Positions 57,253 through 64,000 of a DNA stretch of 64,000 bases are shown piece by piece. The translations under genes and the position numbers were made by a program. Within the stretch, counting starts at the first letter, position 1, and each line of letters starts with the position of its first letter. Origin of the DNA: an uncultured Gammaproteobacteria bacterium (GTDB lineage Bacteria > Patescibacteriota > Microgenomatia > Curtissbacterales > GWA2-41-24); contig CAZBKB010000005.1 of assembly GCA_964492425.1 (NCBI GenBank), positions 12,468 through 76,467 of the forward strand, given 5' to 3'. The notes below the pieces were generated by a model that was not told the DNA's origin, made no database searches, and saw only the letters and a list, made by a program, of their open reading frames with translations.

Positions 57253-57421
57253 CTTCTGTTTAAGTTTCCAAAGTAAGTAAAAGACTGAAGGGTGCTAACA
57301 ATATATAGCACGATTCCCTTGTCATAACAGGCAATAGGGGAGTTTGGTACTTGCGGAACTCGTTGTTCCAATAGGCTAATCGCTTGAATTAAGAGAAGAA
57401 AATTGCTAGAATAATAGCTAC

Positions 57422-58561
57422 ATTCCTCGCAAGAATCCTTCTCAGCCGCAAGTTGCTCCCCGAAAGGGAGCATGCATATTTCAGAAAAGGACTTCAAGTC
57501 TTTTATAACTGTAAAACAGAACTTGGCACCACAATCCGTGAGGCATTGTTTAAGTCGTCTCGGCATCATCAACAGGTGGTTTGCAGACAAAGACCTGAAC
57601 AAAGACAATGTCGAGAAGTTTTATATGGAGCTTAAAGCCAAAGGCTTAAAAAATAATTCTCTCAATACTTATCACACAACATTCAGTCAGATTAGAAATT
57701 ACTGCCTAGATAGAGGGCTTCCAGCCGATTTCTATAGCGGCTTTAAGGCATACAAGAAGACAAAACCGGACATACTTGTTTTTACCCCAGAAGAAATTGA
57801 AAAAATAATAAGCACAGAACTTACTTACGGAAAGTTTTACGGCAAAGATGTTTCTTTCTTAAACTTCAGGTACAGAACGCTCACTATGTTTCTTGCATAT
57901 ACAGGTTGCAGATATTCAGAAGCAGCAGACCTCCAGATAAAGCGGCTAGATTTGTCTGCTGGAAGGGCCATTTTTATAAATACTAAAACAAACGAAAATA
58001 GGCCTGCCTATATAACTGAACCGCTTAAATCAAATCTTATGCAACTAGTAGATGGTAGAACTCCAGATGAATTTGTTTTCAGAAACGCAGTCGAAAAGCA
58101 CATTCATGTCTCTGACTATAGTGCAGACCTGAAAAGGCGTGCTAGGACTGCTGGTGTTACCAAAAGAACATTTCCACATAACTTCAGGCACACTTATATA
58201 ACACTTATGCTCGAGGCGGAAGTGCCAATAACAGAAGTGGCATCACTTGTTGGTCACAAGGACATCCAAACCACATACGATACATATATGCATCTCGCGG
58301 ATAGGACTTTGCAGAAAGCTGCCATGAGGCACCCGCTAGTTAGGAGAAATGTAAACCCAGCAGAAATAGTAAAAACTGTCAAAGAAACCCTTGAAAGTCT
58401 TCACCTAGAGAACGACGCAAGGTTTACCTTCAGCCTTTCAGAAACATCGAACGGATTGCAGTTTTCTCTTCAAACAAAGAACGAATAGGGGACTGAATCA
58501 GTTATAATTCAATCCCCTTTCTCAGCTCGCAAGCTACTCCGCCTGAATTCCTCGCAAGAAT
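57422..58561 (+). mobile_element. Integrase module bounded by a perfect 15-bp direct repeat (attcctcgcaagaat)
   Basis: The direct repeat lies at 57422-57436 and 58547-58561. Adjacent imperfect repeats ccttctcagccgcaagttgctcc (57437-57459) and ctttctcagctcgcaagctactcc (58517-58540) are arranged in swapped order. The module lies immediately after ftsZ at the start of a defense island. Confidence 0.4.
57472..58488 (+). CDS. Tyrosine site-specific recombinase/integrase (phage integrase family)
   Basis: N-terminal SAM-like core-binding domain. The catalytic domain has R (TGCRYSE), HNFRHTYIT, VGHKDIQTTYDTYMH (H-x-x-R ... Y). Higher G+C than its surroundings. Confidence 0.8.
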   Translation: MHISEKDFKSFITVKQNLAPQSVRHCLSRLGIINRWFADKDLNKDNVEKFYMELKAKGLKNNSLNTYHTTFSQIRNYCLDRGLPADFYSGFKAYKKTKPDILVFTPEEIEKIISTELTYGKFYGKDVSFLNFRYRTLTMFLAYTGCRYSEAADLQIKRLDLSAGRAIFINTKTNENRPAYITEPLKSNLMQLVDGRTPDEFVFRNAVEKHIHVSDYSADLKRRARTAGVTKRTFPHNFRHTYITLMLEAEVPITEVASLVGHKDIQTTYDTYMHLADRTLQKAAMRHPLVRRNVNPAEIVKTVKETLESLHLENDARFTFSLSETSNGLQFSLQTKNE

Positions 58562-58725
58562 TAATTGGGTAGCTTTTCCTGTTCTATTAACAACTCCAAG
58601 GCCCGTTCGGTAAATGTTTTAAGCGTCTCTCGCTTTTTTACTGCCTCAAGTTTGGCAACCTGATGCAGTTCTTTGTCTATTCTTATTTGCTTGGTTTGTT
58701 TTATGTCGATTTGTCGATTGTTCAT
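58561..58725 (-). CDS. Ribbon-helix-helix (CopG/antitoxin-like) small protein
   Basis: The start was chosen at ATG (plus 58725) giving 54 aa: MNNRQIDIKQTKQIRIDKELHQVAKLEAVKKRETLKTFTERALELLIEQE (beta-alpha-alpha RHH pattern). The longer 104-aa ORF to 58875 runs through a GC-rich non-coding-looking stretch. Confidence 0.35.
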   Translation of the reverse strand: MNNRQIDIKQTKQIRIDKELHQVAKLEAVKKRETLKTFTERALELLIEQEKLPN

Positions 58726-59330
58726 GTTATTTCGGAGGGCCCCTAGAACCTTCCCTCCCTCGCTCCCTCTGGGAATATACATAGTTAAATTAGCTATATA
58801 TATCTTGCTGCCACCCAGAATCTTGTCTGGGTCAAAGGCTGCACATTCCCGTCGGTCGCTTCGGTCGGTCGCCACTAATCTTCAGCTAGTTTTATTTTTA
58901 GTCGCCTAACTACTCGTAGCGGTCGAGCCCTCTGCGACAATAAAAAAACACCGGGACGAAATGAATTTCTTCATCTCGTTTTGCCAGTGTTTGGGTCGAA
59001 AAATGCTTTCTCGACTTAAATCGACTATAACTCAAATCGACACAAATGTCAAGTTTAGCCTATTCGGACAACATAATTGTAATAACTTACAGACCATGAA
59101 AGAGGTTATTAGTTTTAGCAGAAACACTTGAACAGATTTAAGGATTTCTGTACCTTTAATGTGTCGAAATACCTCCCATATATCTCTATATAGTTTATGA
59201 ACTATGTATTATCTCTTATACATAATATATATTATGATGCGTGTGCCTAGAGCGTCGCCATCTAAATTAAAAAAGGTACTAAACTATCAAGGACTAACCG
59301 ACCAGTTCTTGTTATAATCATTACACCTCT

Positions 59331-60101
59331 ATGAATATCTCTGATTTAAAACTTTTTGCAGAAAGCAACGATATAAAAATGGCAAATCAGAGCACAATTG
59401 CATCGGAAGCAGCAGACATTATTACGAAACGATATAACTACAGCCTTGATGCTATTAAAATTAACTTTGATAAGCTTTTGTATGAAACAGAAAGAGAAAC
59501 TTACAAAGTTTATTTGAAATATCAGAAGGAATACGGGAAAAAAGTATTTGACAAATTCACAGCAGAGTTAATAAAAAACAAAGAATTAAAACAACTCGGA
59601 GAAGTTGGTGAAGTTTTAGGTAATTATTTCGAAGTTTTTGATAAGTTTTTTCTTTCTTTAGCACAATCTAGGAAAGCCCGAGCTGGTAAGTCTTTTGAGG
59701 CTATACACAATGCATTATTTAAAGAACTGTCTTATCCATTCGATGAACAAAGGGTGATAAACGGAAAGCCAGATTTCATTATGCCCTCATATGACCATTA
59801 CATGAATAATGCACCAGACTGCATTATCTTTACTGCAAAAAGAACGCTAAGAGAAAGGTGGCGACAAATTGTAATAGAAGGTACTAGAGGTTTGGGCTTT
59901 TTTCTTGCGACAATCGACGAAAACATAAGTGCAAACCAAGTCTTAGAGGCACACAACAACAGAATCTTCATAGTCTGTCCAGAAATAATTAAGAAGGAAA
60001 AATATTCAAATGCAATTAATGTATTAAGTTTTACCCAATTTTTTAAAGATTATCTTGACCCAGCATTAGCAAGATGGAAAAGGAATGAGATAGTTTCATA
60101 A
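59331..60101 (+). CDS. Type II restriction endonuclease (specificity unknown)
   Basis: 256-aa ORF ending 2 nt before the C5-MTase gene. It has a PD-(D/E)xK-like arrangement (KPDFIMP ... [10 protein letters not shown]). The call rests mainly on genomic context. Confidence 0.45.
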
Positions 60102-60103
60102 AT

Positions 60104-61195
60104 ATGAAGAAGAAGTTCACATTCATTGATTTATTCGCCGGAATAGGAGGGACTAGAATTGCATTTGAAGGTGCTGGAGGTGAATGTGTATTTACTTCAG
60201 AGTGGGATAAGTATTGTCAATTTACATATCTGGCAAATTTTAAGGAGAAACCACATGGTGATATTAGAGTAATTGATGAAAAAAACATTCCAGACCATGA
60301 CCTGCTCTTAGCAGGGTTTCCATGTCAGCCATTTTCAATAGCAGGCGTTTCTAAAAATAAAAGCTTGGGCAGAGCCCACGGTTTCAAACATGTTAAGCAG
60401 GGAAATCTTTTTTTTGACATTGCAAGGATAATTCTTGAAAAAAGACCAAAAGCATTTTTACTCGAGAATGTAAAAAATCTTAAAACTCATGACAAAGGTA
60501 ACACATTTAAGGTTATAAGTGAGACATTGGATAGCCTTGGGTATGAGACTTTTGTTGAAGTATTGGACGCGAAATCTTATGTACCGCAACACAGGGAAAG
60601 AATTTTTATTGTGGGATTCCGAAAGGAAATAAGTAAAAGTATTAAATTCAATTTTCCAAAATCTCATAAACGAAATAAAAACTTAAAAGATATACTCGAA
60701 AAAACCGTTGATAGTAAATATACCCTGTCGGATAAGCTCTGGAATTATTTACAAAATTATGCAAAAAAACACAAAGAAAAAGGTAACGGATTTGGTTTTG
60801 GTTTAATTGACCCCGAAACGGATGATATTACTCGAACGCTAAGTGCTAGGTACTACAAGGATGGTTCGGAAATTTTAATTAGGCAGAAAAATAAGAACCC
60901 ACGAAGGCTTACACCTCGAGAGTGTGCACGATTAATGGGATTTGACGACAGCTTTAAAATAGCAGTTTCGGACACGCAGGCATACAAGCAATTCGGCAAT
61001 GCTCTTTGTGTGCCTTTGGTAAGTTCTATAGCAAAAGAAATGATTAAAGGTTTAAACTCTTATGGAATTATAAAAAATTATGGACAAACTGACGACTCAA
61101 GAAAGAAGCTGGAATATGTCCAGAATCAAATCAAGAAATACAAAGCCAGAGATGAAGCTGAGAAGATTTCTCCACAAGTCAGGCTACCGATATAG
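60104..61195 (+). CDS. dcm: DNA (cytosine-5)-methyltransferase
   Basis: Motif [11 protein letters not shown], motif [10 protein letters not shown] (catalytic Cys), ENV (FLLENV) and motif [10 protein letters not shown]. Its 3' end overlaps vsr by 116 nt in another frame. Confidence 0.85.
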
Positions 61196-61487
61196 AATAC
61201 ATTACCCCATTACTGGTAGGCCAGATATCGCCTTTCCATCAAAACAAATAGCTCTATTCATTCATGGTTGTTTTTGGCATCAGCATGGTTGCAAAAACTC
61301 AGTGATTCCCAAAACCAATACAGATTTCTGGATGCATAAATTACAATCAAATGTTGAACGAGACTCAAAAGTTACGAAACTGTTAAAAAAAGACGGTTGG
61401 ACTGCTTATACCTTATGGGAGTGCGAACTTGAGGAACGATTTGAACATGAAGCAGGAAGGTTGGTGAAAAAATTACACAATCGATAA
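61080..61487 (+). CDS. vsr: Very short patch repair endonuclease Vsr
   Basis: [58 protein letters not shown] and [11 protein letters not shown] are collinear with E. coli Vsr. Confidence 0.8.
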
Positions 61488-61530
61488 AATGGGCATTCTT
61501 TTTTACCCTGTAGTATAATTTTCACGCCTA

Positions 61531-63006
61531 ATGACGATAACAAAATCTGAATACTTATTATTTCTTAAACATCCAGCTTGGCTGTGGCTTAAAAAACATG
61601 CCAAAGACAAATTACCAGCAACATCTGCAGAACTGCAAAGACTTTTTGATTTGGGACATGTTTTCGAGACATACGCTGAAAAACTTTTTCCCAATGCAAT
61701 AAAGTTAGGTTTTCGAGAATATCAGGAGTATTTGGACCTTCCCACCAAGACAGTTGAACTTCTGAATAATGGCGTAAAAACTATTCTGCAAGGAAGAATT
61801 GAAATCAATAATCTAACATGTATTTTCGATTGTTTAGACAAAGTTGGTAAGGATGAATTTGACTTGATAGAAATTAAGGGAAGCACTTCAGCGAAACCCG
61901 AGCATCATTTAGACCTCGCATTTCAGCTTCTTGTTATAGAGTCTGCCGGTTACAAGGTAAGGAACATTAAAATAATCCATGTAAACAATGCTTTTATAAG
62001 GAATGGTGAAATATCTCCTGATGAAATAACTACTGTTACCGATGCTACCAAAGAAGTGCGTGCCTTGGAAGAATTTACAAAGACAAGCATTAAAAAGGCA
62101 TTTGAGATAATCAATTCTGACATCATGCCAAGTTTATCGCCTCGACACGCCTCAACAGGTGCACTAAAAGAATGGATAGAAATTCATTCATACATAAACG
62201 GGGGGTTGCCAAGTCACCATGTTTATAATATTTCATCCCCAAACCCCGCCGCATTAGGTGAGCTTGAAGACCTGCATATAGAAAAGATTGAAGATATTCC
62301 AGATGATTTCAACCTTAGTGCAAAGCAAAGATGGCAAGTAATTGCAAATAAGAGTGGGAGGCAAACAGATAAGAAGAAAATTAAGGAGTTTATAAAATCA
62401 ATTGAATATCCGCTTTACTTCTTAGATTACGAAACTTTAGCAGGAGTAATTCCACCGTTCGATGGATTAAAACCATATGAGCAATTACCGTTTCAGTATT
62501 CTCTGCACATTTTAAAAAAAAGAGATTCAAAGCTGGAGCACGAGGAATATTTGCATACCGATAGCACTAACCCTTTGCCTCAACTTTTGAAACAATTAAA
62601 AAATGATATTGGAACAAAAGGAACAGTCTTAGTGTGGAACGAATCTTTTGAAAAAAGATGCAATGACTTGATGGCTATGCTTGCTCCAGAATATGCTGAC
62701 TTTTTAAAATCAGTTAATGCAAGAATTATTGACTTAATGAAGCCATTTGCTAAAGGATGGTTTGTAGACAAAGAATTTAGGGGGAGCTCATCTATTAAAA
62801 AAGTTTTACCAGCCTTGGTTAACAAATTATCTTACAAGGAGTTGTCAATTAGTGAAGGAGGCTTAGCTCAATCCATATGGATGGATACTTTTTTAAATGG
62901 GGAGAACACACAACAGAAAGAAAAAATTGCGAGTGACCTTCGGGAGTATTGTAAGACTGATACTCTCGCAATGTTTGAAATCTACAAACTGCTTAAAAAT
63001 TTTTAA
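61531..63006 (+). CDS. Two-nuclease protein: N-terminal Cas4/RecB-like PD-(D/E)xK domain plus C-terminal DEDDy 3'-5' exonuclease-like domain (DUF2779-like)
   Basis: N-terminus: FDCLDK ... DLIEIKGSTSAK (D ... ExK) then HHLDLAFQLLV. C-terminus: YFLDYETL (Exo I DxE), VWNESFEKRC (Exo II-like), YCKTDTLAMFEIY (Exo III YxxxD). Confidence 0.5.
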   Translation: MTITKSEYLLFLKHPAWLWLKKHAKDKLPATSAELQRLFDLGHVFETYAEKLFPNAIKLGFREYQEYLDLPTKTVELLNNGVKTILQGRIEINNLTCIFDCLDKVGKDEFDLIEIKGSTSAKPEHHLDLAFQLLVIESAGYKVRNIKIIHVNNAFIRNGEISPDEITTVTDATKEVRALEEFTKTSIKKAFEIINSDIMPSLSPRHASTGALKEWIEIHSYINGGLPSHHVYNISSPNPAALGELEDLHIEKIEDIPDDFNLSAKQRWQVIANKSGRQTDKKKIKEFIKSIEYPLYFLDYETLAGVIPPFDGLKPYEQLPFQYSLHILKKRDSKLEHEEYLHTDSTNPLPQLLKQLKNDIGTKGTVLVWNESFEKRCNDLMAMLAPEYADFLKSVNARIIDLMKPFAKGWFVDKEFRGSSSIKKVLPALVNKLSYKELSISEGGLAQSIWMDTFLNGENTQQKEKIASDLREYCKTDTLAMFEIYKLLKNF

Positions 63007-63823
63007 ACCAGTCCTCGTCAATCGTTACTACTTCTTCTGTTCTCACAAAGATACCTAAACCAAGCTCCTTCATTTTCTCGACCAGCTGCTCTCCATCAAC
63101 CAAGTCAATAGGGGTTGAACCATCTCTCGATGCTTCAAGTTTAGCGTCCCTTGTGAATGAGCCTGTTGTAATTAGCAAACCTTTATCAGCTCTACCCACC
63201 ATTGTTCCTTTAAATTCTCTTATTTGTTGAGAGGTAACAGTTCCTTGGTATCTCTTACACTGAAAGATTACTTTGAAGCTAAGAAAACCTCCAATTCTTA
63301 CAATGCCAGTCCCGTCAATTCCACCATCACCTGATTTTCCTGTCACCTTAACTTGAATGAAACCAGCTTCCCTCAAAACTCTCTGGCAAAGCCGTTCAAA
63401 TTCTGAAGGGTCAAGGGACTTTAAAATCTCTAAGAGCTCATCTTGCCAATCAGGTTGTTTTGTGTCTGATTTTCCAGTTTCTTGTACTTCATCATCAACT
63501 TCTGTTTTGTCAATATTTTTGACTGTTTTATTAACCTCATCCTTGTCAACAGATTTCGTTTCTACACCCTTGCTAGTTAAAGACCAGACACCTCTCGAAG
63601 AATTTTCAAGTAGACCAAATCTTTTTAGATAATTCCTCGCCCATGCAAGCCTGTAGCTAAGTTTAGTTCTATTGCCTCTATGAATCTCACTAATTTCTGC
63701 ATCACTAAGTTTTAAGATTTCTGCAACTTTTTCCTCAAGTTCAGAAACAGAAGCAGAGTTACCAAGTTCGTGTAACGCCTCAAGTAAAGGATTAAATAAA
63801 CCATCATATTTAGGTACAGTCAT
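62993..63823 (-). CDS. mrr: Type IV (modification-dependent) restriction endonuclease Mrr
   Basis: N-terminal Mrr_N winged helix (LFNPLLEALHELGNSASVSELEEKV). C-terminal Mrr_cat PD-(D/E)xK: GKSGDGGIDGTGI ... VIFQCKRY. It converges on and overlaps the upstream nuclease gene by 14 nt. Confidence 0.8.
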   Translation of the reverse strand: MTVPKYDGLFNPLLEALHELGNSASVSELEEKVAEILKLSDAEISEIHRGNRTKLSYRLAWARNYLKRFGLLENSSRGVWSLTSKGVETKSVDKDEVNKTVKNIDKTEVDDEVQETGKSDTKQPDWQDELLEILKSLDPSEFERLCQRVLREAGFIQVKVTGKSGDGGIDGTGIVRIGGFLSFKVIFQCKRYQGTVTSQQIREFKGTMVGRADKGLLITTGSFTRDAKLEASRDGSTPIDLVDGEQLVEKMKELGLGIFVRTEEVVTIDEDWFKNF

Positions 63824-63914
63824 AATATTATTTTACAATAAATATCCCTTCAGTGTGTTCTAAATAATTTATTTTATAGCAGAGTTTGGGTTTAAAAAAT
63901 TATAATAAGGTTAC

Positions 63915-64000
63915 ATGAAACCTACTGAAGTGATGAGCACACTCGCAAACCCTTGGAAAAAATACAATGAGTTTTTTGACAAAGGCTGTAGGAATATTTG
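63915..64000 (+). CDS. 5' end of an ORF truncated by the window edge
   Basis: ATG 63915 opens MKPTEVMSTLANPWKKYNEFFDKGCRNI... to the window end. Too short to classify. Confidence 0.15.
   Translation, partial: MKPTEVMSTLANPWKKYNEFFDKGCRNI

Follow-up and report, generated by a model that had tools for sequence, protein, structure and literature searches.

The DNA stretch analyzed here, called the window below, comprises 64,000 nucleotides (nt) of contig CAZBKB010000005.1 (positions 12,468 to 76,467; assembly GCA_964492425.1), deposited as an uncultured Gammaproteobacteria bacterium and placed by GTDB in the Patescibacteriota (Microgenomatia, Curtissbacterales, GWA2-41-24). Near its right end, at 61531-63006 on the plus strand, lies a gene of the DUF2779 family whose product is predicted to join a Cas4-like nuclease to a DEDDy exonuclease through a helical linker. 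The open reading frame (ORF) starts with ATG and encodes 491 amino acids followed by a stop codon, exactly as given in an earlier description made from the sequence alone (the sequence-only reading). The start codon is judged correct, because homologs align from residue 1. A DUF2779-like protein had been expected, and the Pfam DUF2779 profile (PF11074) matches residues 296-421 over its whole length (1-126 of 126) with E = 2.5e-41 and 141.3 bits, far above the gathering cut-off of 23.3 bits. Three other profiles score below their cut-offs: Pfam Cas4 (PF01930, residues 97-184; 20.1 vs. 22.7 bits), Pfam RNase_H_2 (PF13482, residues 312-488; 17.2 vs. 22 bits), and NCBIfam UU173 (NF045869; 93.6 vs. 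225 bits), for which the C-terminal part alone aligns. PADLOC (PADLOC-DB v2) reports weak matches to Cas4 and Cas4b only (E = 3e-6 to 7e-3). The DUF2779 family is large, with more than 3,245 homologs, and the representatives of its 50%-identity clusters number 6,879 at E ≤ 1e-3 and 1,885 at E ≤ 1e-30.

Conservation was assessed in an alignment of 78 homologs from bacteria of the candidate phyla radiation (CPR), Acidobacteriota, Planctomycetota, Bacteroidota, Campylobacterota, Chloroflexota, and archaea, with identity down to about 31%. Sixteen residues are identical in all sequences: D100, E114, K116, Q132, D299, E301, Q322, H326, E374, D401, S421, K423, Y473, C474, D477, and T478. This set includes the catalytic residues of both predicted domains; thus, both active sites are intact and under strict selection. 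The motifs quoted in the sequence-only reading can all be read in the translation. In the N-terminal part these are IFDCLDK (D100; codon 61828-61830, plus strand), DLIEIKGSTSAK (E114 and K116; codons 61870-61872 and 61876-61878), and the Q/H-rich PEHHLDLAFQ (H125, D128, and the conserved Q132). In the C-terminal part they are FLDYETL (ExoI, D299 and E301; 62425-62433, plus strand), WNESFE (ExoII-like, N370 and E374; E374 codon 62650-62652, plus strand), and YCKTDTL (ExoIII, Y473 and D477; codons 62947-62949 and 62959-62961, plus strand). The agreement is far beyond chance, because the PF11074 match is so strong and the catalytic residues are fully conserved in the 78 sequences. The pattern D299-Y-E301, N370-E-S-F-E374, Y473-x3-D477 is that of DEDDy enzymes, with the acidic residues and the tyrosine invariant. 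The ExoII acidic position is occupied by Glu, as opposed to the Nx2-3[F/Y]D expected for the DEDD superfamily.

Sequence searches against the PDB, with the single sequence and with the family profile, returned nothing meaningful, only spurious matches to cubilin and FtsY; therefore, a comparison of folds was needed. The AlphaFold2 model, built with 42 homologs, has a mean pLDDT of 91.8, a pTM of 0.85, and no segment below 70. Its N-terminal domain (residues 1-190; 61531-62100, plus strand) is predicted to form the alpha-beta-beta-beta-alpha-beta core of PD-(D/E)xK nucleases, with D100 in strand 2 and E114-x-K116 in strand 3. In a structure search this part matches Cas4, RecE, LHK-Exo, MGME1, Exo5, ACE1, and Dna2. 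The C-terminal domain (residues 291-491; 62401-63003, plus strand) matches the DEDD 3'-5' exonucleases MrfB, Pol III epsilon, PolB exo, ExoI, TREX1, and ERI1. The Cas4-like and DEDDy exonuclease-like folds that had been proposed from motifs are thus both recovered in the model. Between them, a mostly helical bridge (residues ~191-290; 62101-62400, plus strand, approximate boundaries; pLDDT 82-93) has no match in the profile search. No helicase or ATPase domain is present on the 491-residue chain. The four cysteines of the Cas4 iron-sulfur (Fe-S) cluster are absent in the 78-homolog alignment; two cysteines alone are well conserved there, C474 of the exonuclease domain and C97, which 23 of the 78 sequences share. 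The N-terminal domain is therefore best described as a Cas4/RecB-like PD-(D/E)xK nuclease that is predicted to lack the Fe-S cluster, and the gene as encoding a typical DUF2779-family enzyme with two predicted metal-dependent nuclease domains on one chain. A separate observation concerns a JGI metagenome protein (P0024), which is identical to residues 1-274 (61531-62352), then diverges and ends at 292 amino acids. The divergence and early stop point to a frameshifted copy that would keep only the Cas4-like domain; such a copy may reflect a sequencing error or be a natural pseudogene.

This architecture is already known, and the protein described here is an added member of a known family. Majorek et al. 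(2014; PMC3985635) assigned DUF2779 to the RNase H-like superfamily, as family F.17 within its 3'-5' exonuclease clade, and noted its co-occurrence with the PD-(D/E)xK-like DUF83 (Cas4) domain. In a 2026 mSphere study, HHpred analysis of MMSYN1_0389, the DUF2779 protein of JCVI-syn3.0, assigned a Cas4-like N-terminus (7MID, 4IC1) and a DEDDy C-terminus (MrfB, 8UN9), with conserved D/E/K and DEDD residues and an incomplete set of Fe-S cysteines (PMC13621843). With the two-nuclease architecture published in 2014 and re-analyzed in 2026, the fold assignment itself adds nothing new. The protein encoded in the window is homologous over its full length to the published members (F.17, MMSYN1_0389, and Mbov_0804 of Mycoplasma bovis). 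It has the same Cas4/DUF83-like PD-(D/E)xK and DEDD(y) domains, the same D...ExK residues, the same DEDDy set, in which Tyr replaces the His of DEDDh enzymes, and the same loss of Fe-S cysteines. The mollicute members (UU173 subfamily) exceed it in length, their profile spanning 650 positions.

Comparison with better-known nucleases outlines what is particular to the window protein. The RecB-type PD-(D/E)xK motifs and fold are common to Cas4 proteins (SSO0001, 4IC1; Pcal_0546, 4R5Q; type I-C Cas4, 8D3L; Cas4-Cas1, 7MI4), but the window protein has neither the four-cysteine Fe-S cluster nor accompanying cas1/cas2 genes and a CRISPR array, and it is fused to a second nuclease. The exonuclease domain was compared with DEDDh and DEDDy enzymes, including MrfB (8UN9), Pol III epsilon (1J53), ExoI, TREX1, and PolB proofreading domains, as well as the defense-linked Cas2-DEDDh (8FYC) and Cap18 (7T2S). 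It differs from them in the ExoII Glu (WNxxFE) replacing Asp, in the additional invariant residues Q322, H326, D401, S421, and K423, and in being joined to a PD-(D/E)xK nuclease, not to a polymerase or helicase. A close parallel is provided by the COG2251/TM0106 "RecB family nuclease" (PF13482, family F.13 of Majorek et al.), which likewise pairs a DUF83/Cas4-like PD-(D/E)xK domain with a 3'-5' exonuclease domain of the RNase H-like type (PMC3985635). In COG2251, however, tandem AAA domains are frequent; they are absent in the window protein, which also scores below the PF13482 threshold.

The genes around the DUF2779 gene form an island that is clearly accessory and restriction-rich. As the sequence-only reading had it, the gene lies between genes for restriction-modification (R-M) and Vsr and a convergent, overlapping mrr gene; the overlap with mrr, at the 3' end of the DUF2779 gene, measures 14 nt. 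The upstream genes, all on the plus strand, encode an EcoRII-C-type type II restriction endonuclease (59331-60101; Pfam EcoRII-C, 6.5e-23; PADLOC REase_II), a Dcm-like C5 cytosine DNA methyltransferase (60104-61195; Pfam DNA_methylase, 2.8e-101; TIGR00675), and a Vsr very-short-patch mismatch endonuclease (61080-61487; Pfam Vsr, 8e-27; TIGR00632, 1.7e-40). The mrr gene (62993-63823, minus strand) encodes a type IV, methyl-directed restriction endonuclease (Pfam Mrr_N and Mrr_cat; PADLOC mREase_IV, 1.4e-34). The left edge is marked by a gene for a tyrosine recombinase/integrase (57472-58488, plus strand; Pfam Phage_integrase, 2.1e-27), which directly follows ftsW-murG-ftsQ-ftsA-ftsZ; between the integrase gene and mrr lie, in this order, a small ORF, the R-M-Vsr genes, and the DUF2779 gene. 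The dcm and vsr frames overlap by 116 nt (61080-61195), the overlap being formed by a C-terminal tail of Dcm beyond its Pfam domain and by Vsr, whose profile matches from residue 1; this is much longer than the dcm-vsr overlap of E. coli. In the 43-nt gap between vsr and the DUF2779 gene, a consensus scan finds a promoter-like element, TGGGCA-18-TATAAT (61490-61519, plus strand; 10 of 12 matches), 12 nt 5' of the ATG, although such sites are overall no commoner in the region than in shuffled sequences. The element gives weak evidence that the DUF2779 gene may be transcribed independently of vsr.

The distribution of CCWGG, the site type of EcoRII, Dcm, and Vsr, sets this block apart. The site occurs 80 times in positions 1-57252 (1.4 per kb) and is not depleted there. 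From 57253 to about 65130 it is absent, the last part being read from an overlapping metagenome contig (L091 812-1941, corresponding to about 64001-65130); about 6.5 sites would be expected in 57253-64000 (P ~0.0015), with the motif chosen beforehand from R-M homology and the block boundaries read off afterwards. This suggests that the R-M block avoids its own target site, and the absence of CCWGG from the integrase to mrr suggests a single mobile unit that includes the DUF2779 gene. The island is probably mobile and horizontally acquired. Exact-sequence look-ups with the window protein and with P0024 yielded no contig, and the right flank was recovered with an exact DNA pattern in a metagenome collection. 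The contig found (Ga0075864_139, the same L091) is 100% identical to positions 63190-64000 of the window and extends 6.6 kb further. Beyond mrr (L091 726-7412) it carries an unknown 241-amino-acid ORF, a SOS-response-associated peptidase (SRAP), a HicA/HicB toxin-antitoxin pair, three ORFs without annotation, and an IS3-type (rve) transposase.

Several minor features accompany the left edge. The small ORF that separates the integrase gene from the R-M genes (58561-58875, minus strand) has a weak, sub-threshold match to the Omega repressor (ribbon-helix-helix) and may encode a controller of the island or of the R-M system. An exact 15-nt direct repeat, ATTCCTCGCAAGAAT, at 57422-57436 and 58547-58561 flanks the integrase gene, and a second, imperfect motif (TCTCAGCcGCAAGtTgCTCC / TCTCAGCtCGCAAGCTaCTCC) adjoins each copy, with the order swapped. 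These repeats may mark the recombination sites of a small cassette carrying the integrase. For the island as a whole, integration at a transfer RNA (tRNA) gene and long att repeats were considered and rejected: ARAGORN detects neither tRNA nor tmRNA genes in the 64 kb, and only the 15-nt repeat is present, around the integrase gene itself. TRF detects one trivial tandem repeat in the entire window.

To describe the genomic context of the family, ORFs were called in 81 non-redundant homolog loci, and 543 neighbors within four genes were clustered all-vs-all. The context tally covers 76 loci; ORF calling was crude, and about half of the neighbors are unannotated. Recurrent restriction or defense clusters lie within four genes of DUF2779 in at least 23 of the 76 loci (at least 30%), which is a lower bound because singleton neighbors are unannotated. 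These clusters include an N6/N4 methyltransferase with a ResIII helicase, a SNF2-PLD helicase with an Eco57I-type methyltransferase, GmrSD, SIR2-HerA, and RhuM-Fic. Individually inspected loci, many of them rich in defense genes, add a KAP/PifA-like nucleoside triphosphatase (NTPase); a type I R-M system with a GajB-like UvrD and HEPN; a MORC/MzaB-like ATPase with a PbeA-like helicase and PLD; and NERD with AAA and a metallophosphoesterase. In inspected plasmid loci, a NACHT ATPase overlaps the DUF2779 start and is accompanied by Mokosh-like helicases, a dGTPase, and SbcCD-like genes. Occasional fusions of DUF2779 to defense-type domains also exist. Among 288 neighbors at positions 1-2 on either side, an estimated one in ten or so carries an R-M or defense-type Pfam domain. 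This is suggestive of an excess over a typical genome, as a semi-quantitative estimate made without a matched control from a neighbor tally over the alignment that gave top families only.

The most specific recurrent adjacency to a named defense system seen in this set is HerA-DUF2779: three unrelated genomes (L006, L009, and L012) encode HerA directly upstream of DUF2779 and in the same orientation, and SIR2 precedes HerA in L006 and L012, where that position is present. By comparison, a linkage to the particular partners found in the window does not hold as a family trait, with Vsr in one, Dcm in three, Mrr in three, and EcoRII-C in none of the 81 other loci. The distribution of DUF2779 is patchy across bacteria and archaea and its contexts vary, as expected for a horizontally moving gene; serine/tyrosine recombinases or transposase-like helix-turn-helix genes occur near it in 11 of the 76 loci. 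A phage or plasmid origin was rejected as a general explanation. No full-length DUF2779 is found in 50,697 phage records and only six loci in 2.9 million viral contigs. Plasmids carry 29 full-length copies in 72,556 records, with some megaplasmids among the carriers, and 27 of the 33 matching plasmids are non-mobilizable. One locus of Candidatus Magasanikbacteria (L022, 308-15628) holds one full-length and three partial DUF2779 ORFs within 15 kb, two adjacent pieces resembling a split second copy; this points to local duplication or decay of the gene.

What these enzymes may do can be approached from their better-studied relatives. Enzymes of the Cas4, RecB, Exo5, and MGME1 type are end-dependent and act mostly 5'-3' on single-stranded or frayed DNA, and DEDD enzymes act 3'-5'. 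By analogy, the DUF2779 protein would be a helicase-independent DNA-end exonuclease of two polarities, and we tentatively favor the view that in this island it serves as a restriction accessory that degrades linear fragments. The enzyme would load without ATP on free DNA ends or on frayed or single-stranded termini; the Cas4-like site would trim or degrade the 5'-ended strand, and the 3'-ended strand would be the target of the DEDDy site. Linear fragments released by the neighboring EcoRII-C-type and Mrr endonucleases would be degraded or processed in this way. In E. coli, RecBCD destroys DNA after restriction, and the clean-up proposed here would be analogous, an analogy of function only: RecBCD and AddAB have a motor and Chi recognition, whereas the window protein is a single 491-residue chain lacking a helicase/ATPase motor and Chi apparatus. 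The variety of NTPase-based systems beside the homologs is more in keeping with a generic nuclease acting downstream than with a specific sensor. A self-sufficient sensor-effector is less likely than a restriction accessory. The proposal of the sequence-only reading, a stand-alone defense effector or a DNA-processing accessory, is plausible, given the restriction-rich island, the share of loci with restriction or defense neighbors, and the defense-type fusions.

Several observations weigh against such a role, and some of them could be explained if DUF2779 proteins were core nucleases of repair, recombination, replication, or RNA maturation in small genomes that have no RecBCD/AddAB-type machines, the island copy being incidental and having no part in immunity. 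The homolog of Mycoplasma mycoides, MMSYN1_0389, is quasi-essential in JCVI-syn3.0 on phage-free medium, and its role must therefore, according to the authors, go "beyond bacterial immunity" (PMC13621843); the window copy, in contrast, resides in an accessory restriction island. A transposon mutant in the DUF2779 gene of M. bovis (Mbov_0804) was recovered in a cell-culture growth screen (PMC7373297). The sequence-only reading had taken residence of homologs in housekeeping operons as evidence that would speak against it, and such residence is found in part of the family: in seven of the 76 loci, all from CPR, the order is rpoB/C - dnaG - rpoD - DUF2779 - dsbA - small exonuclease - hisS - typA. 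Among five of these loci the pairwise identities of DUF2779 track those of DnaG, DsbA, and RpoD, which points to vertical inheritance, and in three further loci DUF2779 stands beside typA. The small exonuclease of the seven loci (L008, L011, L015, L017, L018, L043, and L044) is a stand-alone RNase_H_2/PolB-exo2-like 3'-5' enzyme of about 190 amino acids, encoded two genes downstream on the opposite strand, next to dsbA. Two DEDD-type exonucleases are thus encoded within 2 kb beside dnaG-rpoD. The neighbors of P0001 (71% identity), the closest homolog whose contig is long enough, are metabolic genes. All-vs-all clustering of the neighbors reveals no conserved operon partner, the largest neighbor family being present in eight of 81 loci, and PADLOC-DB v2 has no defense-system or PDC candidate model for the DUF2779 protein beyond the weak Cas4/Cas4b matches. 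The figure for enrichment in defense neighbors stands without a matched control and on crude ORF calls. Finally, the proposed activity and polarity of the two sites, and DNA rather than RNA as the substrate, are drawn from remote homologs, and no biochemical characterization of any DUF2779 member was found in the literature searched. A housekeeping enzyme would likewise fit the very strong purifying selection that both active sites show across phyla, and the frequency of DEDD and Cas4-like folds in repair enzymes such as MrfB, ExoI, MGME1, Exo5, and Dna2. Against it, DUF2779 is patchy rather than universal in bacteria and archaea, highly variable in location, and in 11 loci close to recombinase or transposase-like genes. 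The frequent restriction or defense neighbors and defense-type fusions also argue against it, as does the location of the present gene inside a CCWGG-avoiding block bounded by mobile-element genes. We therefore regard a housekeeping function as a serious possibility, though a less probable one than a restriction accessory.

The remaining explanations tie the gene to mobility, to mismatch repair, or to CRISPR. The protein might process ends during excision, integration, or transfer of the island, or act as a recombination exonuclease similar to lambda Exo and RecE, with no function in host defense. The likeness of its Cas4-like domain to RecE, LHK-Exo, and other phage-type alkaline exonucleases is in line with this, as are the serine or tyrosine recombinases near several loci, the integrase and insertion sequence flanking the island, and the copies on megaplasmids. 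Yet a nuclease of that kind is unlikely here, because the family is virtually absent from phages and viral contigs and rare on mostly non-mobilizable plasmids, no Red-beta/RecT-type annealing protein is among the recurrent neighbors, and most loci have no recombinase nearby. Another function is suggested by the position of the gene on the same strand, 43 nt downstream of vsr. In very-short-patch repair of E. coli, patch excision is performed by Pol I; the DUF2779 exonucleases could instead excise the patch after Vsr nicks 5' of the mismatched T, and the gene would then be the fourth of an R-M-Vsr operon. One locus of Methanosarcinales (L075) also has Dcm at position -1 and Vsr at -3. However, since Vsr is near DUF2779 in only one and Dcm in three of the 81 other loci, the linkage is not conserved, and the promoter-like site between vsr and the DUF2779 gene speaks further against a common operon; we consider this role improbable, slightly more so than the preceding one. 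Cas4 and DEDDh enzymes are the two known prespacer-trimming nucleases, and a genuine CRISPR Cas4 acting in spacer acquisition could account for the weak Cas4 profile matches and the structural likeness to Cas4 in Cas4-Cas1-Cas2 complexes. The Pfam score, however, lies below the gathering threshold, the Fe-S cysteines are missing, and the 64-kb window has no CRISPR-like tandem array. There is also no cas gene among the identified neighbors here or among the recurrent or individually annotated neighbors at homolog loci. A CRISPR association is thus effectively refuted, and this explanation is extremely improbable.

In summary, the window protein is an ordinary member of a large family, and its modest interest lies in function. 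For a part in defense, which is plausible, there is new circumstantial support together with real counter-evidence. The main point is that the family of a quasi-essential minimal-cell gene often resides among diverse restriction and defense systems. CPR bacteria have few recognized immunity systems beyond R-M. If DUF2779 proteins do serve as defense accessories, a common nuclease module would be added to the immunity repertoire of these bacteria, and a testable hypothesis would be available for the minimal-cell gene MMSYN1_0389.

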